A stretch of DNA of 35,562 nucleotides from Chiloscyllium plagiosum (GCF_004010195.1 NC_057718.1:88763728-88799289); one strand, 5' to 3'; positions 3,385 to 33,643 are shown, counted from the first letter of the stretch. Program-made: numbers and translations. The notes: generated from the letters alone by a model not told the origin.

Positions 3385-4730
3385 TTGGAGGTTTGTGTAG
3401 GTATTTGGAGTTCGGGTACCAGTTGCAGTTGTTGTAAGTATTTACGCCAAGCTGGGAATTTGGATTGCAGACGTTTCTAGGTGACATCCTCAGTGCTGAG
3501 GAGCCTCCTGTGAAGCGCTGCTGTACTGGGTCAGTTGGAATCTATTTGGTTTCGCTCGCACTGCTTCTGGTTGCCTGTTCCGGTTGTTCGATGGAGTGGT
3601 TGGTATATTGGGTCGAGGTCAATGTGTTTATTGACAGAATCCGTAGATGAGTACCAGGCTTCTAGGAATTCTCCAGCTGTCCTCTGTTTGGCTTGTCCTA
3701 TTATGGCTATGCTGTCCCAGTCGAATTTGTGGTCCTTGGCGTCTGCGTGTATAGCTACTAGGGACAGCTGGTCGCGGCGTTCAGTGGCTAGTTGATTTTC
3801 ATGAGTGCAGATCGCAAGTTGTCTGCCTGTTTGTTCTATGTAGTGTTTTGAGCTGTATCTGCATGGAATCTTATACACCACGTTTGTCCTGCATGCGATG
3901 GGTCTTTTGTTCTGGTGAGTTGTTGTCTGAGTGTGGCTGTTGGTTTATGTGCTGTCATAAATCTGAGTGGTCAGAGGAGTCTGGCTGTCAGTTCCGAGAC
4001 ATTTATTAGATAAGGTAGACTGGTTAGTGTGTTGGGTCATGGTATGGCCTCGTCGCATTGTTTGTCTGCCAGGCATCTGCAGATGAAGTTGCGGGGATAT
4101 CCGTTCTTGGTGAAGACTTTGTAGAGGTACTCTTCTTCTCTTCATAGGTCGGGAGTGCTGCAGTGTGTTGCAGCCCTTTTGAACAGGGTCCTGGTGCAGC
4201 TTCGCTTGTGTGTGTTTGGGTGGTTGCTGTTGTAGCTCAGGATCTGGTCCATGTGTGTGGCTTTTCTGTACACTTTTGTGGTGCACTCCCTGTTCTGTGT
4301 TCTTTCTACCATCACATCCAGGAATGGGAGTGAATTGTTGGTTTCCTCCTGTATCCTCAATCTGATCCCTGTGAGCATGGTGTTAAAAATCCAGTGTGTG
4401 TTCTTGATTCCTGTTCACTTAATAATTACAAAAGTGTCATCCACGTATCTGATCCAGAGTTTGGGTTGGATTTGTGGGAGGATTGTTTGTTCCAGTCTTT
4501 GCATCACTGCTGCTGCTCTGAGCCCGGAGATGGGTAAGCCCATAGATGTCCCATTGATCTGTTCATATATATGGTTGTTGAACGGGAAGTGTGTCATCAA
4601 GCACAGGTCTAGTAGCTTGAGTATGCAGCCATTGTTGATAGGTTCTCCGTCGTGCCGTCTGTTCTGTTTGTCCAGGAGGTTGGCTATTGTCTCTCTGACT
4701 AAGGTTTTGTCAATCGAAGTAAACACTTCA
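3385..4730 (-). mobile_element. Penelope-like element (family A), decayed RT + GIY-YIG endonuclease, left arm of an inverted pair
   Basis: Minus-strand ORF pieces with PLE RT motifs (YEQINGTSMG.PIS, WIRYVDDTF, LPFLDV, VYRKATH) and GIY-YIG (VYKIPC...YIEQTGR). Frameshifted. Confidence 0.9.
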
Positions 4731-4732
4731 TA

Positions 4733-5833
4733 TTCAAAGCCATAAATATGAACAAAGCAATGGGACATCTATGGGCTCACCTATCTCCGGGCTCATAGCA
4801 GAAGCAGTGGTGCAAAGACTGAGAAAATTGGCCTCCCACAAATTCAACCCAAACTCTGGATCTGAAATGTGGATGGCACTTTTGTAATTATTAAGAGAAC
4901 AGGAATCGAGAACACAAACTGGATTTTTAACACCATGCTCACAGGGATCAGATTGACGAGGAGAAAACCAACAATCCACTCCCATTCCTGGATGTGATGG
5001 TAGAAAGAACACAGAACAGGGAATGCACCTCAAAAGTGTACAGGAAAGCCACACACATGGACCAGATCTTGAACTACACCAGCAACCACCCAAACATGCA
5101 CAAGAGAAGCTGCACCAGGACCCTATGAAGAGAAGAAGAACACTTCTACAGAGTCTTCACCAAGAACGGATATCCCTCAACTTCATCCGCAGAAACAATG
5201 CAATGAGGCCATACCATGACCCAACACACTAACCAGTCTACCTTATGTAATAAAGGTCTCGGAACTGACAGTCAGACTCCTCTGACCACTCAGATTTATG
5301 ACAGCACATAAACCGACAGCCACACTCAGACAACAACTCACCAGAACAAAAGACCCAATACTCCTGTGCGGACAAACGTGGTGTACAAGATTCCATGCAC
5401 AGACTGCATAAAAAGCTCTATAGAACAAACAGGCAGACAACTAGTAATCCGCATTCATGAACATCAACCAGCCACTAAACGCCATGACCAGCTGTCCCTA
5501 GTATCTACACCCACAGACAACAAGGAACACAAATTCGACTGGGACAACACAACAATAATAAGACAAGCCAAACTGAAGACAGCCAGAGAATTCCTAGAAG
5601 CTTGGCACGTCCGTGGACTCCGTCAACAAACACATTGACGTAGACCCAATATACCGAGCACTTCAACGAACAACTGGAAGCAACAGGAATGAAACCAAAT
5701 AAATTCCAACCGACACAGTACAGCAGCACTTCACAGGAGGCTTCAAAGCACTGAGGATGTCACGTGGAAAGGGGACAAAATGTCTGCAAACCAACCTTCC
5801 AGCTCAGCAAACATACTGTCAACAACTGCACCC
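4733..5833 (+). mobile_element. Penelope-like element (family A), right arm, inverted relative to 3385-4580
   Basis: Reverse complement of the left arm with internal deletions. Encodes NVVYKIPCTDC...IEQTGRQL.IRIHEH. Decayed hammerhead motif at 5748-5787. Confidence 0.9.
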
Positions 5834-6586: not shown

Positions 6587-8624
6587 CACCAACACCTCCG
6601 CCTACCGCCCCTTGACCATGACCCCACCTCTCCTCACCATTCCATCATCTCCCAAACCATTCACAACCTCATCACCTCAGGGGATCTCCCATCCATAGCC
6701 TCCAACCTCATTGTTCCCCAAACCTGCACCACCCAGTTCCACCTCTTACCCAAAACCCACACAACCTGACTGCCCCGGTCGACCAATTGTCACCACCTCT
6801 CCTGCCCTACTGAACTCATCTCCTCATAACCTGATTCCGTCCTGTCCCCCTTGCCCCATGAACTCCCTGCGTATGTTCGAGACACCACCCACGCCTTCCA
6901 TCTCCTCCATGACTTTTGATTTCCCAACCCACATCACCTCATCTTCACCATAGATATCCAGTCCCTATACATGTCCATCCGCCATGACAAAGCCCTACAA
7001 GCCCTCCATTTCTTCCTCTCCTGTCTATCCAACCAGACTCCTCCACGGACACACTCATTTGATTGGTGGAACTCGTCCTCACCCTCAACAATGTCTCCTT
7101 CGAATCCTCCCACTTCCTACAGACAAGAGGGGTAGCCACGGGCACCTGCATGGCCCCCAGCTATGCCTGCCTCTTTGGAAGAGAGACTGTTTGAAGTATC
7201 CTACGGAGTTACACGAGCACTATCCCCCACCTTTTACTCTGCTACATTGATGACTGTATCGACACTATCTCATGCTCCCACGAGGATGTTGAACAGTTCA
7301 TCAACTTCACCAACACCTTGCACTCTGACCTCACGATCACATGGACCATCTCCCTCCCCTTCCTGGACATCTCCATCTCTGTTTCTGGTGACTGCCTCAA
7401 CACTGATATATATTTCAAACCCAATGACTCCCACAGCTATCCTTGACTACACCTCCTCCCATCCACCCCTCATGTAAAAACAGGATCCCTTACTCCCAAT
7501 TCCTCCGCCTCCCCCGTATCTATTCCCAGGAGGAGCAATTCCACTCCAGGACATCCCAATGGCTCCTATTTCAAGGACTGCAATTTCCCCTTCCAGTTGA
7601 TCAACAATGCCCTTCATCACATCTCCACCATTTGAAGCCCTTGAACCCAACTCCTCCAACCGCAACAAAGTTAGAACTCTCAGTCCCCCCTTCCACCCCA
7701 TTAATCTCCAGGTACAGCTCATTATCCTCTGTCATTTTCGCCACCTACAGTCAGGTCCCACCACCAAAAATGTATTTCCCTCCCCACCCCTATCTGCATT
7801 CCGCAGAGACCATTCCCTCCGCAATTCCCTCGTTAGATCCATGCCCCCCAATAACCCATCCTCTACACCTTGGTACTTTCCCCTGCCACTGCACAAAGTG
7901 CAAAACCTGCACCCAGACCTCCCCCCTCACCTCTGTCCAAGGCCTGAAAGGATCACTTCAAATCCGGCAGAGTATTTCCTGCACCTCCATCCACCTCATC
8001 TACTGCATCTGTTGCTCTCGATGTTGTCTCCTCTACATTGGGGTGACAGGACGCCAACTTACAGAGTGGTTCTGGGAACATCAAACAACCCCACTGCCCT
8101 GTGGCCAACCACTTCAACCCCTCCGCCCACTCCCACAAGGGCATGCAAGTCCTGGGCCGCCTCCACTTCCAAATCAAAGCCACCCCCCAACTGGAGGAAA
8201 ACGTCTCATTGTGCACCTCAGGACCCTTCAACCACACGACATCAACATCGGCTTCACCAATTTCCAAATCTCCCCTCCTCCCCACCTCATCCTAGATCCA
8301 ACCCTCCCACTCAACACTGCCCTCATGACCTGTCTTACCTGCCCATCTTCCTTCCCACCTATCCACTCCAACCTCCCCACTGACCCATCACAGTTACCTC
8401 CCACCTGCGTCCATCTATCGTCTTCCCACCTACCTTTCCTCCAGCCCCAACCCACCCCCCCCAATTTCTCTCTCAGCCCCCTTGTCCCTCCACAATCCTG
8501 ATAAAGAGCTTATGCTCGAAATGTCGATTCTCCTGCTCCTTGGATGCTGCCTGACCAGCTGTGCTTTTCCAGCACCACACTTTTTGATTCTGAATCTCCA
8601 GCATCTGCAGTGCTCACTTTCTCT
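6587..8624 (+). mobile_element. Penelope-like element (family B), 5'-truncated and decayed, RT + GIY-YIG + 3' terminal repeat
   Basis: C-rich strand. Frameshifted pieces include PDCPGRPIV, IPYSQFLRL.RI.S and LIYCICCSRC.LLYIG.TGR. The 3' terminus ...ccagcatctgcagtgctcactttctc is shared with other copies. Confidence 0.9.
8494..8529 (+). ncRNA. Degenerate minimal type I hammerhead ribozyme motif in the PLE terminus
   Basis: AATC-CTGATAA-A-GAGC(TTAT)GCTC-GAAA-TGTC-GATT. Stems I and II pair, but the core CUGANGA is mutated to CUGAUAA. Confidence 0.65.
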
Positions 8625-12517: not shown

Positions 12518-12873
12518 CATGAGGGGCATGGAGAGGGTGAATAGATGAGGTCTCTTCCCTGTGGCGGGGGAGTCCAAAACTAGAGGGCATAAGTTTATGC
12601 TGAGAGGGGAAAGACTTAAATTGGACTTGAGGGGCAACTTTTCCACGCAGACGGTGGTTCGTGTGTGGAATGAACTGCCAGAGGAAGTATCGACACATGA
12701 GGGGCATGGAGAGGGTGAATAGATGAGGTCTCTTCCCTGTGGCGGGGGAGTCCAAAACTAGAGGGCATAAGTTTATGCTGAGAGGGGAAAGACTTAAATT
12801 GGACTTGAGGGGCAACCTTTCCACGCAGATGGTGGTTCGTGTGTGGAACGAACTGCCAGAGGAAGTATCGACA
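12518..12873 (+). repeat. 178-bp tandem duplication (12518-12695 / 12696-12873)
   Basis: Both units run catgaggggcatgg...gaggaagtatcgaca. I see 3 substitutions between them. Confidence 0.95.
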
Positions 12874-13050
12874 TTGTGGTGCTGGAAAAGCACAGTAGGT
12901 CAGGTTCTTGATGAAGGATCACCTTCTTGATGAAGGATTTTTGCCTGAAACGTTGATTCTCCTGCTCCTCGGATGCTGTCTGACCTGCTGTGCTTTTCCA
13001 GCGCCACTCTCTTGACTCTAATCTCCAGCATCTGTAGTCCTCACCTTCAT
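12867..13050 (+). mobile_element. PLE family B terminal fragment with an inverted 5' piece
   Basis: 12876-12903 is the reverse complement of about 12980-13007. Decayed hammerhead TTGATGA..GAAACGTT. Flanked by ctgccagagg at 12853 and 13051. Confidence 0.8.
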
Positions 13051-13114
13051 CTGCCAGAGGTAACGGTAGAGGCTGGCACAATTACAACGTTTACAAGGCA
13101 TCTGGATGGATATA

Positions 13115-13742
13115 GGAGAACGTGAGGACTGCAGATGCTGGAGATCAAAGCTGAAAAATATGTTGCTGGAAAAGCGCAGCAGGTCAGGCAGCATCCAAGG
13201 AGCAGGAGAATCGACGTATCGGGCATAAGCCCTTCTTCAAGAATGAGGAAGGTGTGCCAAGCAGGCTAAGATAAAAGGTAGGGAGGAGGGACTTGGGGGA
13301 GGGGCGTTGGGAATGCGATAGTTGGAAGGAGATTAAGGTGAGGGTGATAGGCCAGAGAGGGGGTGGGGGCAGAGAGGTCGGGAAGAAGATTGCAGGTCAA
13401 GAAGGCGGAGCTGAGTCCGAGGGTTGGGACTTAGATAAGGTGGGGGGAGGGGAAATGAGGAAGCTGGAGAAATTTGCATTCATCCCATGTGGCTGGAGGG
13501 TTCCTAGGTGGAAGATGAGGCGCTCTTCCTCCAGGCGTCGTGTTGCAATGGCGATGGAGGAGGCCAAGGACCTGCGTGTCCTTGGCGGAGTTGGAGAGGG
13601 AGTTAAAGTGTTCCGCCACAAGTGTTCCCTCTCTGCCCCCACCCCCTCTCCGGCCTATCACCCTCACCTTAACCTCCTTCCACCTATCGCATTCCCAACG
13701 CCCCTCCCCCAAGTCCCTCCTCCCTACCTTTTATCTTAACGA
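13115..13742 (-). mobile_element. PLE family B 3' fragment with a 111-bp inverted segment and 15-bp TSD
   Basis: TSD atctggatggatata at 13100-13114 and 13743-13757. Arms at 13267-13377 and 13628-13738. GIY-YIG C-terminus RRLEEERLIFHLGTLQPHGMN. Confidence 0.92.
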
Positions 13743-14360
13743 ATCTGGATGGATATATCCATGTTTAATAGGAAGGGGTTACAGGGATATTGCCCAAACG
13801 TTGGCAAATGGGACTAGATTAGTTTGGGATATCTGGTCTGCATGGACGAGTTCAATCAAAGGGTCTGTTTCCATGCTGTACATCTCTATGACTCTATGAC
13901 TTTTGATGAAAGGTTGGAAAGACTGGGCATCTATCCACTGGAGTTTATAAGGATGAGGGGTGATTGAAATGAATAAGGTCCTAAATTGTCTGGACAAGGT
14001 GAACCCCTACGGAAGGGATGTTTCCTGTTGTGGATGAGTCCAGAACTAGGGACACTGTTTAAAAATCTGGGGTCGTTGGGACATTGAAATAGCAAACCGA
14101 ATGAACCCAGCATCACTATCACCAGATTTGCAACACAGTAAAATTAAAACATTCAATGACCCTCAAAATTGCTCAGCTGTTCCTAACAAGGTCTTGGATG
14201 CCAAGTTTATAACTTAAATAAAACTGAACAATTTATTATTAGTAATGCATCTGTAGCAGTACTCAGAAAAAAGGTAATCTAATTAATATTTATGATATAA
14301 GCCATATCTCCTTTGATCTAAAGACACCTCCCCCCCAACTCATGCACTAACAAACAGACA

Positions 14361-15147
14361 ATATCCATATGTTAGTTTACAAGGACTTGCTGGGTGTATC
14401 CCAAATGGCAAACTGTAACAAAGGAATTCCATCATCCCAATTGTTAGGACATTCTTGACAGTAAGATCAATCAGGATGCAAGCAGGATTGATAACGGTGA
14501 ACCAGTAGATGAGATATATTTAGGTTTCCAAAGGATATCCCATAAGGTACGTGCAAAGCAATTTAATAAGATAACAGCCCATTGTCCATTAGCATATAAA
14601 GAGGATTGCTATCTAATTGAAGACAGAGTTGGGATAAGGAGGCATTTTCAGTATGGCAATCTATAACTAGCGGAAGACAATAGGAATCAGTGCTAGGACC
14701 ACAATTAATCACAATATATGTTAATGACTTGCATAATGGATGTAAATTAACTATCGCCAAGTTTGCAGATAACACATGAGACTAATGAGACTACAGTTGG
14801 AGCCTACGTTTTTAACTTCAGCGAGAAATTGACCAAAGCATGTGTTGTGTTCTCAATAAACAAGGAAAACTAAACCAGATAAAAAGGCCAAAGTTGGAAC
14901 TTTTGTTGCTGGAGTTGAGTTGTAGCATTGTTGCCTGTCTTTGGGGAACAATTAAAAGCAAAGTTCACTGGACTTTGTCAAATCAAACAGAAACGCAATG
15001 ATGTGAATTATGCAGCGAGTACTCCAAGTAGGGGAACAAATCAGTGCATGTGTGTCTTGTTAATATGTTAAAGATAAATTATGATTGGGACAATAGCCAG
15101 GGGAAAAATGTACTTGTGATAATGAAAGAAAGAGGGAGAGAAATAAA
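14361..15147. repeat. Rearranged local duplicate of 17575-18412 (first half inverted, second half direct)
   Basis: 14361-14776 is the reverse complement of 17575-17993, and 14791-15147 matches 18051-18412. The ORF track shows near-identical peptides at 14563(-) and 17540(+). Confidence 0.92.
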
Positions 15148-15887: not shown

Positions 15888-16379
15888 AAAACTTTTATCT
15901 CTCCAAGTGTTGTGTTTCAGATTCTCTGGCTCAGACAGTGCCGGAAGCAAGATCTTTGAATATTGTTAAGGCAGACCTGGTTGGAATGTTGTTAGGCAGT
16001 GGATCATGGGTTAATGAAGGTAGATCGGAATGTAGAATTCAAAACACAAACAGATCAGTCATGATCAAATGATTGGTGGAATGAGCTTGAAGAGCCAAGT
16101 GACCTACTCTGCTCTTAGTTTGGACGTCTCTATGTTTGCATCTGTCCATTGCATACAGACTGTGATGCAGGTTGTGCTAGATGCCATTTCGATGAATGTG
16201 TTGCAATGTGTGCAAGAGTAGGCATAGCATTGTGTAAGATTAATTTGATACCGCTTTAGATTTCACCACTCCATCTAGCCTCTCACATTCAATTGAATAG
16301 ACGTTCAGTGATAGGAATCCCACCAGTGCAAATTTGATCATCAACTACTTCAGACATTAGTTGCCGAATGTTTCCTGCT

Positions 16380-16475
16380 CAAGAGTGTGGTGCTGGAAAA
16401 GCACAGCCAGTCAGGCAGCATCCAAGGAGTAGGAGAATCAACGTTTCGAGCATAAGCTCTTAATCAGAAATGAGG
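16380..16475 (-). mobile_element. PLE family B terminal fragment with a degenerate hammerhead
   Basis: Minus strand reads CTGATTA-A-GAGC(TTAT)GCTC-GAAACGTT-gattctcc. Confidence 0.8.
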
Positions 16476-16794: not shown

Positions 16795-17860
16795 CATAAG
16801 ATGTAGGAACAGAAGTAGGTCAGTCAGCCCATTGAGTTTGCTCCACCATTCAATGAAGAAGTGGTTGGTCTCATCATCCTAATCTCTACTTTGCTATCTT
16901 GCCCCCTACCCTTTTGAGAGAAGAAGTTTGTCTTCCTCGCTGTCTTAAATGGGCAGCCCCTACTTTAAGATTAAGCCCTCTGGTTCCAGATTCTCCCACA
17001 AGGAGAAACAAGCTCTCACCATCCACTTTGCCAAGCCCTTTAAGAATGATGTATTTTTCAGTGAGGTCACTTTTCATTCTTCTAAACTGAAATGAGTACA
17101 GGCCCAACACACTCTGCCTCTCATTATAAGAAAATCCCTCCATACCCAGGATCAACATGATTAACCTTCTCTGGACTGACCCCATCTTTCTTTAGATGAG
17201 AGGACTGAAACTGTTCACAGTGCTTTAGGTGTGACCATGCCTTGTACAGTTTTAGCATGACTTATATTTTTATGTTCAGTTGCCTTTGCAGTAAAGGTCA
17301 CTATTCCATTTGCCTTCTTTATTACCTACTGAATGTGGATGCTAGCCTTTTCTTTGTGAATCATGCATGAGGGCTTCATATCCCTCTGTGCTACAGACTT
17401 CTAAAGTCTTTGTTCATTTTAAATAATATTCAGCTCCTTTATCCTTCCAGCCGAAATTCATAAGCTCACAGTTTCTCACATTATATTCTGTCTGCCAAGT
17501 GTAAGTCCACTCACTTAATATATCTATATCCCTCTCCTTGTGTCCTCCCTAGTAGTTGGTTTTCCACCTACATTTGTGTTATCTGAAAACTTGGCAATAG
17601 TACATTCACATCCATTATCCAAGTCATTAATATATATTGTGATTAATTGTGGTCCTAGCACTGATTCCTATTGTCTTCCACTAGTCATAGATTGCCATAC
17701 TGAAAATGCCTCCTTATCCCAACTCTGTCTTCTATTAGATAGCAATCCTCTGTATATGCTAATGGTCTATGGGCTGTTATCTTATTAAATAGCTTTGCAC
17801 ATACTTTATGGGATACCTGAATATATCTCATCTACTGGTTCACCGTTATCAATCCTGCTT
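16795..17860 (-). mobile_element. CR1 LINE, 5'-truncated and decayed
   Basis: VQRR...LI.GMEGFSY.ER...LGLYS...RRM.SDL and ESGTRG motifs in ORF 16886-17185. RT remnants extend to about 17850. Confidence 0.85.
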
Positions 17861-18419
17861 GCATCCTGATTGATCTTACTGTCAAGAGTGTCCTAATAAT
17901 TGGGATGATGGAATTCTTTTGTTACAGTTTGCCATTTGGGATACACCCAGCAAGTCCAAAGGATTTAGCCCTTGTGAACTAAGATATGGATATGAGCCGA
18001 GAGAACAACTTAAATTAATTAAAGGAGAAACTTAATAAACCAACTCGATGCTACAGTTGGAGCCTACTTTTTTAATTTCAGAGAGAAATTGGCCATAGCA
18101 TGTGTTGGGTGCTCAATAAACAATGAAAACTAAAACAGATAAAAAGGTCAATGCTGGAACTTTTGTTGCTGGAGTCGAGTTATAACATTGTTGCCTGTCT
18201 CTGGGGAACTATTAAAAGCAAAGTTCACTGGACTCTGTCAAATCAAACAGAAACTCAATGATATGAATAATGTAGCGAGTACTCCAGGTAGGGGAACAAA
18301 TCAGTACGTGTGTGTTTTGTTAATATGTTAAAGATAAATTATGATTGGGTCAATAGCCAGCGGGAAAATAAAAAGTACTTGGGATAGTGAAAGGAAGGGG
18401 GAGAGAAATAAAAATAGCA

Positions 18420-18965: not shown

Positions 18966-20553
18966 AATGAATCAGAAATGGAAAATTTAAAAATTGACCC
19001 TTCAGCAAGGAGAACGCAGCAGTGTTTAAAAGCTTATGTAACATCAGGTTTTATTTTTTGACCACAATCCAAGCGACTCAAGAAGGCTTGAGCAGAATCA
19101 TAAATCAATTTGTGGGAATAGACCGTGGAAATGGTTTTGACTATTTACAATGTGAGTACAGGGGATGTCTTATCCGCAAAAGAACATCCTTGCAGTCTCA
19201 ATCTGGAGAGATTAGCTCAAATAAGGGGAGAGGTTAAGTTCATGATGAGCGATGATATTATTGAGTGGAATCATTGTGGGTGGTGCTCACTTCTTATGCC
19301 TGTGCCAAGAGCGGATGGGTTATTATTTGTGTTGATTATCACAAAGTCAACCTCCTAACAGAAACTGACTCATATCCTAATCTAAGATTGGAGGACTGCA
19401 TTGAATGAATTGGACACACACAAACTTTTACCAAAGTCAGCTTTTTAAAAGAGTATCAGCAAGTTCCATTGACTGATATAACTAATGAACTATCAGCTTT
19501 TGCAAAAATGGATGGATTTTATCAACACAGTCGTGCTGTTTGAAATGAAAAATGCAAAAGCAATGTTCCAAAGATTAATCAATAAATAAAATCAATGAAG
19601 TCTTATATAAGTATAGCTAGGTCAATGATTTGGCTGTTTTTAGCTAGATGTGGAAAGAACATTTACACCACTTAACTGAACTGGTTGTTTTTAGCCAATT
19701 TGCTTAAAAATGAGTACATTTTTAAAGGAAAAGTAATTTATTTGGACCACACTGTGGGACAAGGCCAAGTAATATCTAGAGAAGTGCAAGTGTGAGCTCT
19801 TTTAGATCTTCACTTGCCTAAGACAAAATGTGCAATTTTGTTTTATTTTGGCATAAGTGGATTATACCACAAATTTTTCCCACACGAAAGCACTGTTATT
19901 GTGCCTGTAACAATCGTGCTGAAGAAAAGCAGAACATTTGAGTGATACAAGGTCAGTGTATCTTTGACAACTTGAATACTGTGCTGACAACGTTCAGGTT
20001 TGGCCACTTTTAATTGTGAGAAACCATTCAAACCGGTTGATGCCAGTGAAATGGGCTTGGGTGCTGTTTTGCTGCAAGATGCCACATGTCAACAAAATAT
20101 TCAGCAATTGAGAAGGAGACATGGAGTCTTGTGTTGACTTTGCATCATTTTGAAATATGCATCACAACAATTTAAAGAGACTTATTTGTATGGATCAGAA
20201 CACTTTGATTTTTCTGGAATCACTCTTTTGGCCAAGAACTTAACAATTATTTTGGTAAAACATAATTCCCCAACTCTGAAATTGTTTTTTTGACTGTGGG
20301 AAAAAATGTTTTGGTTGGTGCTTTATTGAGAGTGAATATGAAAGGCCCATGGGCTGATATAAATGTAACATTGAAATAGTGTTAAGAAAAATTTTTTTTA
20401 ACATGTAATGAAAAATATCTCTTTTTTTGTGGGGCAGCGTGATGTTAGCTCTATTTTAATACTGTATGGTTTATAGTTTGGATTTTGAACATGTGGTATG
20501 TGAGTTTTTGTGTATGAGAGCATTTAATGATTAACTTGTCAGGGTATCAGGAA

Positions 20554-20778
20554 GGAGAAAGTGAGGACTGCAGATGCTGGAGATCAGAGCTTAAAAATGT
20601 GTTGCTGGAAAAGCGCAGCAGGTCAGGCAGCATCAAAGGAACAGGAGAATCGACGTTTCGGACATAAGCCCTTCTTCAGGAATTCCTGAAGAAGGGCTTA
20701 TGCCCGAAACGTCGATTCTCCTGTTCCTTTGATGCTGCCTGACCTGCTGCGCTTTTCCAGCAACACATTTTTAAGCTA
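20554..20778. mobile_element. Young 225-bp palindromic PLE-terminus insertion with 13-bp TSD
   Basis: TSD agggtatcaggaa at 20541-20553 and 20779-20791. 20588-20777 is a spacer-less palindrome centred on GAA|TTC (20682/20683) with one mismatch at 20662. Confidence 0.95.
20679..20719 (+). ncRNA. Minimal type I hammerhead ribozyme motif with intact core (mirror copy on the minus strand at 20646-20686)
   Basis: CTGAAGA (20686-92), extra A, GGGC-TTAT-GCCC stem II, GAAAC, then GTC with predicted cleavage after 20713. Loop-less palindromic ACGT stem III and a short bulged stem I. Confidence 0.75.
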
Positions 20779-21758
20779 AGGGTATCAGGAACCATTTTTT
20801 AAAAAAAAAAAGACCAGTATAGGGGAGGGAGTCCCTCAGGATGATGGGATTTTGTTTGCATTGGGAGAGGTTTAGGAGCAGACAGAGTAAATATTGAAGT
20901 GCATTAGTTTGTTTTATGTTAGAAAGATAAGGAATTGATGTGTTTTTTTGCTGGTGGAAAAACCCATAGATTAGAAATATTTTGGTTTCAGTTCACTTAA
21001 ATCTTGGTTGAAGTTAGATACACGAAACAATTTTTCCTAGGAAAGGGAGTTTGTTCAGAAATAGGCTATCCCAGGGTAAGGATTTTAGCTTGTAGGTTCC
21101 AGACTGGAAGTCTTTCATTTGAATAACCCCTTCAAGATTCTAATATGAGAAAATCTAAACTCAGTTGTGTGAATACTCAAGAAAGAAGCTATCAAACTTG
21201 CAAGACCAGAAATTGAAACAAACAGTTAAGTCAAGCCTGTAGATGAGATAGAAGAGGGAATTCTTCCAGGTGTTTGAGTACTGTAAATGATGTTTTGGCA
21301 GTAGATTGGATTGTATTTTTACTCTGTCCTTCAAAACCTTTCATTGTGCTATGTAAATAGGGTTAGTTTATTCTGTTCTATCTTTTGCATAATAAATATG
21401 TTTTATTATTAAAATCAGATCTGCAGCATTGTAAGCTGGTCTTTCAGTGAAAGACTGCCTCATTAATTAAAAGAAAAACAGATATCAAGCCAGATATCAG
21501 GCTTGGTTCTGACTTGTCCAGTAATAATATCACCTGGGATCATAACACTATCATGTAATATGTTATAGATTGTCATGCAAGACAAATGCCTATTCTTGTT
21601 AAAACTCAATAGTGGCACTATTTCGTGCCAGTGATAGTTAGACAGGCCCCAAGACTCAGCAGGGAAAGGAGAAATGGTGTCAGCAAACTAGCTGCCAGTA
21701 GTTGGTGATCAGAAGATGCCATATCCTGGCAGTGTTGGAAACTGAAAATATGACAAGT

Positions 21759-28056: not shown

Positions 28057-28524
28057 TGTGATGAAGCAGCTCCTTTTAACAAGGTTATGCTGTCCTTGGC
28101 TTTTTTTTCCAGAGAGGTCGTAAATGTCACAGACTCAAAAAGGTCTGGGGTTGAAGGGTTTTGGGGCCAATTTGGTAATAGCTAACAGGTACTGCCTCAG
28201 GCAAAAGACTTTCAAGTTTAAAAAAAACTTGTACAATGAAAGGGGAGTGGCCAGTTCTCCCACCTCAGCTTTTCTCTGGTTTGGTTTGGTTTGGTTTTTA
28301 GCAGTAGTGTGGAAAAAGCTGCTGGACCCAAAAAACAGTTCTAGGCTAGTACTCTCTCTCTGACATCTCTCCTGTAAGACCCTGTGTTTGATTTTACCTT
28401 TTGTGCCAAGGGGTTTTTATGTGGATTGTTGCAAGTATTTGCAACAGCATCATTAAGGTGGGATGATCTGTTGGATTTTTGGATCGGTTAAGTTATTCTG
28501 TAATCTGTTCTCGTGTGTGTTTCA
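28057..28524 (+). repeat. 5' LTR (truncated by a CR1 insertion)
   Basis: Collinear with 33005-33477, starts TGTGATGAA and stops at ...gtgtttcat. Confidence 0.9.
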
Positions 28525-29930: not shown

Positions 29931-32900
29931 TTGATGTTCCATAGCTCACGCAAGTGGACTATTGCAGGACACATATCCTGGGATTTCTCCTGGCTGTGTG
30001 GTAACGAGGTCACAAGGTCACCAGATGAAACAAAAGAGACCAAAGAGTACAGATAAGGAAGTTGAAATGGAATAAGCAGATACCCTGTTTGATTAGATGA
30101 TTGAGACAAACCAGGTGCACATAGATAATACAGCAGACATCTTTAGCACAGATAATTTGAGTTACAGCAGAAAGATGAAAATTTAAAGTAATTGTATCAA
30201 AAGGAATACACAGAAAAAGAACCCAAATGTACCCCTGAATGTTACTATCTTTAAAACGTTGTCTGAATGAGGAAATGGAGACCATCACATATTCAGGCAG
30301 ATAAGAAATGGTCAGATGTTGTTCAAATCATATTCCTAGTTAGCTATAGAAAGGAGATGTTGTGAGGGGCGCAAAAGTTACCTCTTGGGATCATTTAGGA
30401 GTGAGAAAAGCTCAAGCTAAAATACAAAAACATTTTTACTGGCCTGGACTGCACAAGGATGGAGTTGAATTTTGCCAGATGTAATTGGAAAACCACAGGC
30501 AATAATAAAACTCGCATCTTTAATACCTATTCCTGCATTTGAGGAGCCTTTTACAAGATTCTTAGTTGATTGTGGAGGATCTATACCTCAAACAAAATGT
30601 GGGAATCAGTATTTGTTAACAATAATGGATGTGTCTAATAGATTTCCAGAGGCCGTTCCATTACGCAATATCACAGCTAAAAGGGTTGTAGAGGAATCAC
30701 TCAAATCTTTCACTAGATACAATCAGATCAAGGGTCACACTTCACATCAAAATTATTCAAGGAAGTTATGGACAGCTTAGGAATAAAATAATTCAAATCA
30801 ACTGCACACCATCCAGAACTGCAGGGAGCGCTAGAAAGGTGGCATCAAACATTGAAGACCAAGTTGAGGGTTTATAGTCAAGACTATCCAGATGATTGGG
30901 GTAAGGGAATTCCGTTTGTACTTTGTGCGATCAGAGATGCACCAAATGAATCGAGAAAATTCATTTAATTAGATTTGGGGCATGAAGTGAGAGGCCTGTT
31001 AAAATTGATTAAGGAGAAATTGCTGAGACAGAATTCAGAGATCTCATATTTGGACTGTGTCAAATTTTAGGGAGCAATTAAATAGATGAGGGAGTTAGGT
31101 AGACAGTATTTAAAAGTATCACAGCATACAATAAAATCCGAAACAGACAAGAAATCAAAACTTCGCAATTTTGCTACTGGGGATAAGGTGTTAGTGATAG
31201 GTGAACCTTTAGTGGACCTTATCAAGTCGAAAGGAAATTGAGTGAGGTGAACTACTTGTTAGGAACTCCAAACAGAAAGAAATCTCACAGAGTGTGTCAT
31301 GCTCAAAAGGTATTTTGACAGCGAAGGAAGGCAAAAGGAGACACTGTTATTGGTTACAACACAGCGGGAAGAACCAAGTTCAGAGGATTCTGAATTGGGT
31401 ATTCCTCATATTAAATTGGACAATGAGGAACTTGTCAAAAATTGGGATAAATTATTGAGTTACCTTCCAGAGAAAAATTGAAATGACCTGAAAGCATTAT
31501 TACTATCACATGGGGAGATAAGTGGAAATAAGTTGGGAAGTACTAGCCAAATTATGCATGAGGTAGATATAGGAGATGCTGTTCAGATTAAGCAACATCC
31601 ATATAGGCATACACCTCTAAAGTTGGTACAGGTTCAAAATGGCATTGAATGCATGCTCCAAGACAACATAATCAAAGTGTGTTACAGGGACTGAAGCTCA
31701 CCCATAGTAATGGTGCCAAAACCCAGGTGGTACCCAACAGTTATGTGTGAACTGTCACAAAGTCAATGCCGCTACAAAGACTGATTCAAATCTGATTCCG
31801 GGTTTGGAAGACTGTGTTGAGAAAGTGGGACAAGCAACTTATATTTCTAAGTTGGACTTGCTCAGAGGATACTGGCAAGCACCTTTATCAGAAAAAGCAA
31901 AGGCAATTTCGGCTTTTGTAATGCCGATTGACTGTATCAGTTTAAAGTCCTGCCATTTGGCATGAAAAATACACCAGCCACATTTCAAAGACTATCCAAT
32001 AAGATCACTGATGGACTACCCAGCTGTGTCGTAAATATCGATGACCTGGTGATTTTTAGTCACAGGTGGAAGGAACATTCACAACCTTTATCAGACTTGT
32101 TTGATGAACTTCGGGAGGCAGGCTTGGTGATAAACCTGGCTAAAAGTGAATTTGCCAAAGCCCAGGGTTACCTTCCTGGGCCATGTTATTGGACATGGAC
32201 AAATGACCCCACAGGATACAAAAACAAAGGTATTTGGGGATTTTCCCATCCCATCAACAAAAAAAGCAGTCCCACAGTTACTGTGAGTGGATTTTATTGA
32301 AAATTCATACCAAATTTTAGCGGTGTGGCTGCTCCACTCACTGAATTGCTAAAGACAGGCAAGAGGTTTCAGTGGACAGTGGGCTGTCAGAAGGCATTTG
32401 ACAGCCTGAGAGCTGTGTTAACCACTGTCCCAGTGTTAGCCACACCTAATTACGCAAAACCATTCAAGGTGGTTATTGATGTGAGTGATGTGGGTGTCGG
32501 TGTTGTGCTCTTACGGGGAGATAATGAAAAGATAAAAAGACCTGTCGGATATTTCTCCAGGAAATTGAACTTGCATCAGCAGAAATGGTTGAGAAGGAGA
32601 CTTTGAGCTTGGTGTTGGGATTACAACATTTCAGTGTTTACGTTACCAGTAACGTATCTAAGATAATCATATATACTTTTCATAACCCATTAAAGTTTGT
32701 GAAGAAATCTAAGGACAAAAAATGCCAGACTGTTTAGTTGGAGCTTGTTGTTACAGCCATTCAATTTGAAAGTTGTGCATGTGGCAGGACGAGACAACAT
32801 GATTGCTGACGCATTGTTCAGACTTGAATGAAAAATGGATGCATTCATTGGTGGAGTACAACGGACTGAAATGAAATGTAGTGCATATGTTTATAGTCAA

Positions 32901-33004: not shown

Positions 33005-33643
33005 TGTGATGAAACTGCTCCTTTAACAAGGTTATGCTGTCCTTGGCTTTTTTTTCAGAGAGGTTGTAAATGACATAGACTCTGAAAAGTCTGGAGTTGA
33101 AGGGTTTTACGGCCAATTTGATAATAGCTACAGATACTGCCTCAGTCAGAAGGCTTTCAAGTTTTAAACAAACTTGTAAAATGAAAGGTGTGTGGCCAGT
33201 TCTCTCAGCTCAGTTTATCTCTCGTTTGGTTTGGTTTGGTCTTTAGCAGTAGTGGGGAAAAAGCTACTGGACCCAAAGAGGCAGGTCCAGGCTGGTACTC
33301 GCTCTCTCTGACATCTCTCCTATAAGACCCTGTGTTTGATTTTACCTTTTATACCAAGGGGTGTTTATGAGGATTGTTTTAAATATTTGGAACAGCATCA
33401 TTAAGTTGGGATGATCTGTTGGGTTTTCAGATAGGTTAAGTTATTCGGTATTATGTTCTCTTTTGTTTGTGTTTCATTCAGTAATCTTGTAAATAAATTC
33501 TGTTTTGTTTTAAGCTACTGTTTTGACCAACTGCATTCCCTCCTGGAATATCTGTGTTATACCTGCTTAAAACAACTAGCAAAGTTAGGGTTTGGGCAGA
33601 TTTCATGAATTGTTTTGAAGGAGGGCTTGCCTGGTCCATAACT
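33005..33643 (+). repeat. 3' LTR
   Basis: TGTGATGAA...ggtccataac(t). AATAAA at about 33491. Confidence 0.9.

Follow-up and report, generated by a model that had tools for sequence, protein, structure and literature searches.

The 225-bp insertion at 20554-20778 in Chiloscyllium plagiosum is a real and ordinary stub of a common shark Penelope-like element (PLE), one among thousands. It lies in a window of 35,562 nucleotides, the whole stretch of DNA that was analyzed (NC_057718.1:88763728-88799289). The stub holds the leader of the element twice, +1 to +130 and +1 to +96 head to head, and was probably built as both nicked ends of the target primed reverse transcription (RT). More broadly, there is about an even chance that the inverted pseudo-LTR (pLTR) and one-sided tail of Penelope elements result from programmed twin initiation by a protein dimer on a capped RNA, with tens of thousands of such events recorded here. 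The value of the locus is that of a data point; the genomic tallies connect the inverted repeat of genomic copies with the two RT starts observed in vitro, through one tail per palindrome, arm ends that are both used alone, zero-loop junctions and ends at the probable cap.

The original prediction had described a 225-bp insertion with 95-bp arms, no spacer, one mismatch, retained CpGs and a perfect 13-bp target-site duplication (TSD), and each of these features is reproduced. The insert sits between exact direct repeats at 20541-20553 and 20779-20791 and contains 8 CpG. Its palindrome (20588-20777) consists of arms of 95 nt each, 20588-20682 and 20683-20777, with zero spacer and a sole mismatch of 20662 against 20703. 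A TSD of 15 bp with one substitution (20539-20553 and 20777-20791) is an equally valid reading; 15 is the modal length in the family, and with this reading the orphan base 20778 disappears. Also right were the recognition of a Penelope-like terminus, its minimal type I hammerhead motif and the turn just 5′ of the core. The insert as a whole is asymmetric, though, with 34 nt (20554-20587) on one arm only. In the unit numbering used here the A of ATTCCTG is +1, at 20682 on the plus strand and 20683 on the minus strand. The features are as follows.

20541-20553, no strand: tail-side copy of the target-site duplication, an exact 13 bp (20539-20553 in the 15-bp reading)
20554-20683, minus strand: tailed arm spanning unit +1 to +130, corresponding to the 5′ leader or pseudo-LTR end of a putative Neptune-type PLE
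20554-20587, minus strand: tail of 34 nt (unit +97 to +130) found on a single arm, with the probable first RT start site at its outer end; a tail as in PMC8557442, PMC3846280 and PMC11167929
20648-20683, minus strand: minimal type I hammerhead motif, predicted cut after 20652 (C17), its stem II with a G-U owing to the change at 20662
20682-20683, no strand: 2-nt AT overlap of both arms, unit +1/+2, center of GAATTC, from the sequence and the junction survey; probably a microhomology join
20682-20717, plus strand: minimal type I hammerhead motif, core 20686-20692, stem II 20694-20705, predicted cut after 20713, with sequence and features as described in PMC4209133
20682-20777, plus strand: tail-less arm spanning unit +1 to +96, with the probable second RT start site at its outer end
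20779-20791, no strand: target-site duplication, second copy, 13 bp exact

The predicted RNA fold of the 225-mer is one hairpin of -189 kcal/mol (z -28), a stability that 0 of 200 shuffles equalled; transcribed, the palindrome is predicted to form a 93-bp hairpin or duplex. The insertion had been called young, which holds as a relative term. Among 45 loci with the exact center the arms carry no mismatch in 11, one in 13 and at least two in 21, so a single mismatch is typical, and contigs from a second organism (organism B; X13, X14), with flanks ~3-4% diverged, enter the same tail-side junction. No empty site was seen in contig sets X4, X5, X13 and X14, in which contigs show presence only and most joints are not displayed.

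The family is abundant in the 3.56-Gb genome (G000). Exact 33-nt tails occur there in two variants with 30,599 and 29,698 copies, and 7,190 loci have a head-to-head junction, sought within 20 nt of the core. The exact 24-nt center is found at 786 loci, 11% of the junctions (696 for a 30-nt version), and each sampled copy has its own TSD. These numbers contradict the suggestion of a one-off product. They give no better standing to a foldback family by descent, for which one turn point had been expected: 89% of junctions have other centers. Among the first 50 listed, GAATTC accounts for 3, GGAATCC, the commonest, for 10 and GGAATGATTCC for 5, the remainder being mostly short inserts copied from nearby element sequence (hand counts). 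The turn is thus focused at +1 while the junction letters vary. The exact-center copies (49 parsed of 50) span at least six subfamily haplotypes, which are common to copies with other centers, so the palindrome recurs by convergence and not by descent from one master. Parsed samples are the first-listed loci of contigs C1-C2 and not random draws. A tail-selected set (100 fetched, one duplicate dropped, leaving 99, 6 of them with a 5′ gap of N) has an inverted arm in 50 of 99 loci; in 38 of those 50 it starts at +86 to +109 by alignment. Stubs at such a density would be expected to give host transcripts numerous long RNA hairpins.

Two outer ends recur in these copies, one near +130 and one near +95. 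A TSD was found in 109 of 134 palindromes examined; all 109 differ, and 94 measure 13-16 bp. In 94 of the 109 palindromes with a TSD the second arm is short of 32-40 nt of the tailed arm, and in 39 of 49 parsed exact-center loci it ends at +89 to +101 by alignment. Among 90 center-selected palindromes, 85 have one tail, 2 have two and 3 were scored with none (one of these through a tail shifted by a deletion), which indicates that the two start sites are used as a coupled pair. Each end is also used on its own. Among 40 hand-picked copies starting at +1 are 18 single copies with a readable TSD, and 11 of these end at ~+95 and 7 at ~+130. Since +95 is used alone and flush with a TSD, it is not just the stopping place of a self-copy.

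The two arms also differ in how far they reach 5′. In 47 loci (automatic parse, a few of them shifted by a later parse) the tail-less arm extends more than 4 nt further in 22 and the tailed arm in 15, and 10 lie within 4 nt. Neither arm is consistently longer 5′, so neither is always a copy of the other. In one locus (L019) the arms run from -127 to +95 and from +79 to +130. The arms of one palindrome are nonetheless close kin: they agree at 899 of 951 subfamily-diagnostic cells (135 loci), against 607 expected for random partners, and have private changes in common, for example an 8-bp deletion in L005. Wholesale homogenization of arms after insertion was considered and rejected, for unshared changes dominate (322 against 66 shared) and most shared ones are subfamily alleles.

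The base composition of the TSDs and one compound insertion merit separate mention. The 109 TSDs tend to start with C or T and finish with G, partly from assigning shared bases to the TSD; this bias may reflect 1-3-nt primer-template pairing at both start sites. Locus L070 (G000 C1:150532780-150533430) has the exact GAATTC center and a three-part insertion within one 15-bp TSD: an inverted arm, a unit running ~65 nt past +130, and a second unit from +1 to +95 of mixed haplotype. The arrangement suggests template jumps from the RNA 5′ end.

The inner ends point to the 5′ end of an RNA. A base other than the native one stands at -1 in 9,566 of 38,342 matches, which makes +1 a sharp boundary. The context of +1, TC/ATTCC with the slash marking the boundary, is initiator-like. 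In 100 listed rows the foreign -1 base is G in 55, A in 31 and T in 14 (hand count; many G rows are ambiguous, with the opposite arm supplying G). Of 13 G rows with a TSD, 5 have exactly one extra G separating the TSD from +1, among them both tailed and tail-less copies; a single extra base occurs in 0 of 5 A/T rows, a contrast that is not significant in this small hand-picked sample. By analogy with L1 (PMC11702581), the extra G is suggestive of a copied cap. Taking G at -1 as a pure cap signal holds only partly, with a target-derived G in 5 of 13 rows. It is likely that +1 is a capped transcription start. One set of RNA reads (X21) contains 2,058 family reads on both strands, 95% of which run on into unlike sequence, with no pile-up of starts; a second set (X22) contains zero family reads. 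No RNA set is listed with the locus itself.

Under twin initiation, the GIY-YIG endonuclease would make a staggered cut of ~14-15 nt in the target. A protein dimer on one RNA would then start one cDNA at the tail end (~+130) and the other at the tail start (~+95), and both would run to the RNA 5′ end, likely the capped transcription start, with the rear RT displacing the first cDNA or using a second RNA. The cDNA 3′ ends, both GGAAT, would likely anneal via their terminal AT, and host end-joining would fill in. Each insertion would build the palindrome anew, and the product would likely be a dead end. The double copying of the same 95 nt from one RNA is taken here as a proposal.

A biochemical counterpart is the Poseidon element of Anolis carolinensis (Frangieh et al., 2024, PMC11167929), which cuts and extends both strands of its target in vitro. 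RT begins at two internal sites that bracket its tail, the protein is predicted to act as a dimer, and uncleaved RNA is used (PMC11167929). The shark family is alike in its two start sites around the tail, in the apparent use of both strands and in apparently having no need of hammerhead cleavage. It differs in that the Anolis element belongs to the Poseidon clade, without the CX2-5CxxC linker, and has an ORF that starts inside the hammerhead, as opposed to ~+168 in the shark. In the available text of that paper, the two start sites are not tied to inverted repeats.

A possible but unlikely alternative is snap-back, in which one cDNA, having reached the 5′ end of the RNA, turns back and serves as its own template; the hybrid version has the +95 cDNA fold and then gain the tail from a short cDNA at the other target end. 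Several observations favor this explanation and count against twin initiation. The arms nearly always belong to one subfamily, and their shared private variants are predicted equally by snap-back. Hairpin-compatible junctions and templated inserts are common, and a 3-nt loop that a cap-derived C closes would account for GGAATCC. The hybrid version moreover predicts a tail-less arm that is more often longer 5′, as found (22 against 15). A folded single strand, however, has a minimum loop size, and a zero-loop turn is sterically hard. The insert and 785 other loci have a zero-loop center, and among 87 parsed junctions 14 need a loop below 3 nt in the absence of added bases, 14 show microhomology with a loop of at least 3 nt, 5 are blunt and 54 were scored as insertions, some wrongly owing to point mutations. 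Pairing of the last AT is open to two separate cDNA ends but hardly to one folded strand. Pure snap-back from the tailed cDNA cannot yield a second arm that reaches beyond the tailed one (22 of 47) and leaves the stop at +95 unexplained; the hybrid version cannot yield a longer tailed arm (15 of 47). In 5 of 122 loci the arms differ at 2-3 diagnostic sites by common alleles, weak evidence against a single copied strand (~1 expected by mutation, a rough estimate). Fold-back, the mechanism first proposed for the insert, is probably wrong for the GAATTC center, where the arms overlap by 2 nt with no loop; tail-less arms also occur alone with a TSD.

Self-priming on an antisense template, in which antisense RNA primes on its own palindromic end and so yields a head-to-head repeat, is quite improbable. 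It is the published hypothesis for exactly this architecture in rotifer Penelope elements (PMC3846280), and family RNA reads are found on both strands. Against it, the ends pile up at a sense-strand initiator-like site with an excess of G at -1, a signature of the sense cap by analogy with L1 (PMC11702581). The junction letters vary, with no single encoded palindrome, and the Anolis protein uses sense RNA in vitro (PMC11167929). Marginally more doubtful still is a self-propagating non-autonomous family, whose master palindrome would be transcribed whole and mobilized in trans. The recurrence of the exact 24-nt center at 786 loci and of a second arm ending at +89 to +101 would fit such a family. 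The prevalence of other centers and the spread of exact-center copies over at least six haplotypes shared with other-center copies speak against it, as do an arm length shared with single copies and a whole RNA predicted to form a 93-bp duplex; individual palindromes may occasionally be re-mobilized. An assembly artefact from read fold-back, to which the short-read contigs lend themselves by breaking in the repeat so that none spans the whole insert, can be dismissed given the intact TSD, the arm mismatch, thousands of parallel loci with distinct TSDs, and contigs from another sample (X4), which join the left flank to the tail in one case and the tail-less arm to the right flank in another.

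Twin initiation, the preferred reading, also draws on the parentage of the unit. One locus (L207) has a 590-residue frame, partly shifted and left uncorrected, that includes an RT (Pfam RVT_1 at E 2e-8) and, after a CX4CxxC linker, a GIY-YIG-type end with a YIG motif. Behind this frame follow ~155 nt and then the unit at 92% identity, ending at +95. The Pfam GIY-YIG match in another locus (L203) reaches only E 0.093, and PF01541 is present in several homologues. The closest named relatives are proteins of sharks (carpet sharks) and rays, with 82% identity in Chiloscyllium punctatum. The linker of the predicted protein (P0001) conforms to the CX2-5CxxC RT-EN linker motif that marks the Neptune and Nematis clades (PMC8557442). 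On this motif the parent is assigned as a putative Neptune-type PLE.

The unit stands at both ends of this element. At 842 loci it runs past +130 into shared sequence, and in one of these continuations (L216) the frame that opens at +168 gives a match of 38% (E 3e-19) to the N-terminal part of a full-length relative. Among the matches listed, many of 30 continuation loci are partial tandems, with another unit restarting at or near +1. As the unit precedes the ORF start (~+168) and also follows the ORF, it serves as RNA leader and as 3′ repeat of the autonomous element. No intact full-length parent was present among 24 loci examined, the ORF start and the ORF end coming from different loci. The family thus shows an ORF-linked repeat, an inverted 5′-truncated copy beside the pLTR, a 34-nt tail at one end and a TSD, the hallmarks of EN+ PLE insertions.

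Insertion units of EN+ PLEs have an inverted 5′ pseudo-LTR, a one-sided tail of 30-40 bp and a TSD (Arkhipova et al., 2013, PMC3846280; Craig et al., 2021, PMC8557442). The shark copies resemble them in the head-to-head inverted pLTR, palindromic junction, one-sided tail, TSD and partial tandems. They differ from the rotifer examples in TSD length, 13-16 bp against 8-10 bp, and favor two primed cDNAs over the self-priming proposed there. Shark copies consist of the leader alone and occur in thousands, which makes counting possible. How PLE inverted repeats and tails arise is described as unresolved in the available text of PMC8557442, PMC3846280 and PMC11167929. As far as these sources go, the architecture (inverted pLTR, palindromic junction, one-sided tail, TSD) is published and only the mechanistic case is new. 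A search of mostly open literature, without Repbase, turned up neither a derivation of the inverted repeat from twin initiation nor a description of the shark family, which is a weak negative.

The L1 twin priming model explains 5′ inversions. L1 events are similar to the shark insertions in that a second target end primes cDNA, the TSD is kept, junctions have microhomology and full-length 5′ ends bear an extra G (PMC11702581). In L1 the two cDNAs are adjacent and nearly non-overlapping, and the second primer lands anywhere by microhomology (PMC11702581), whereas the arms of the shark stub share 95 nt and the second cDNA starts at a fixed site that the element itself encodes. Near non-overlap is confined to a few loci such as L031. 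The proposed mode is that of twin priming, but not in its L1 form.

The hammerhead motif was recognized by eye against the description of metazoan PLE hammerheads by Cervera and de la Pena (2014, PMC4209133). On the plus strand the order is CUGAAGA (20686-20692), an extra A, stem II (20694-20705), GAAAC and GUC with its C at 20713. The core has CUGANGA, GAAA and UH, an unpaired base after A9, G10.1-C11.1 and a palindromic stem III. It shares with the published hammerheads CUGANGA, the unpaired base before stem II, G10.1-C11.1 and the palindromic stem III (ACGU), and differs from them in a stem II of only 4 bp and a U-U in stem I of the insert's subfamily. Stem I of the insert pairs C-G, U-A, U-U and A-U and is weakened by the U-U; a sister subfamily with A at +35 (21 of 128 arms) has a perfect 4-bp stem I. 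Rfam gave no hammerhead model match at the insert or three related loci, only sub-threshold matches to miRNA-like hairpins.

The insert had been seen as carrying two back-to-back ribozymes. There is indeed one core per strand, but the pair is a by-product of the symmetry: any transcript holds one core and its antisense. The single mismatch does place a G-U in stem II of the minus copy, as had been pointed out, yet it is merely an ordinary C-to-T change. The minimal PLE hammerheads of that study had no activity as monomers, and in Schistosoma opposite-strand motif pairs lie 100-700 bp apart (PMC4209133). The shark cores, by comparison, are 7 bp apart on opposite strands, so that a tandem dimer is impossible. 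As the core and its antisense would pair in one long hairpin, no cis dimer is expected, and the symmetry of the palindrome is predicted to silence the ribozymes rather than pair them.

Copy ends give little sign of ribozyme cleavage. The cut site was rejected as their main source, starts there being more than 20-fold rarer than at +1; minor use is possible. A purine before +33 was matched 1,019 times, and the control position +39 has 1,026 matches; true junctions make up ~35 and ~15 of 100 listed rows, respectively (both hand counts), and +1 has 9,566 matches. This amounts to a two- to three-fold excess of cut-site starts over one control, confounded by GA/GAT microhomology. The scarcity of starts at +33 is in line with the use of uncleaved RNA as template in vitro. 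The counts argue against the hammerhead setting the ends of most copies, and it is likely a passenger, carried along uncleaved.

Non-LTR retrozymes, which have been reported from one cartilaginous fish, are likewise short, non-coding, hammerhead-bearing and derived from PLE pLTRs (bioRxiv 10.64898/2026.07.22.740005). Retrozymes are head-to-tail tandems with a ribozyme per unit, unlike the insert, where a head-to-head pair lies on opposite strands and same-strand tandem hammerheads are lacking. A recurring 224-bp head-to-tail unit, composed of the unit, an 82-nt continuation and a short upstream piece, is found in L222, L223, L225, L226 and others. Each 224-bp unit has a perfect-stem-I hammerhead on the same strand, which makes it a candidate for a true retrozyme-like derivative.

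Seven further pieces of the unit are found in the window, with 8 matches in all counting both insert arms and a distant family. A longer insertion of the shark PLE family at 13115-13742 lies within an exact 15-bp TSD (13100-13114 and 13743-13757); its tailed arm runs into the 3′ end of the ORF, and its inverted arm (13628-13738) begins upstream of +1, not at +95. Next to it, at 12868-13048, is an older two-armed copy with a rearranged center and a 10-bp direct repeat around it (12853, 13051). A tail-less single arm of an older subfamily (16377-16470, minus strand) ends near +94, with no TSD found. On the plus strand at 7136-8623 a decayed, 5′-truncated Neptune-type copy retains RT-thumb and GIY-YIG-like remnants in shifted frames and ends in an older variant of the unit with its tail (8496-8623).

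The window has other repeats as well. A 2.4-kb head-to-head inverted pair at 3424-5830, with arms of ~1.1 kb that are 83-96% alike, represents a second Penelope-like family; it has RT (weak RVT_1 match) and GIY-YIG-like remnants and 9-bp direct repeat flanks, and repeats the two-armed pattern of the insert on a larger scale. An inverted repeat of ~390 bp (14383-14776 and 17575-17957, 93-97%) is interleaved with a 300-bp direct repeat (14791-15147 and 18051-18412, 91%) whose copies are 3.26 kb apart. Finally, direct repeats of ~415 bp at 28102-28518 and 33048-33466, 4.95 kb apart, delimit a decayed LTR retrotransposon, with integrase-like, RT and RNase H remnants (Pfam RVT_1, RT_RNaseH) between them at 30469-32606.
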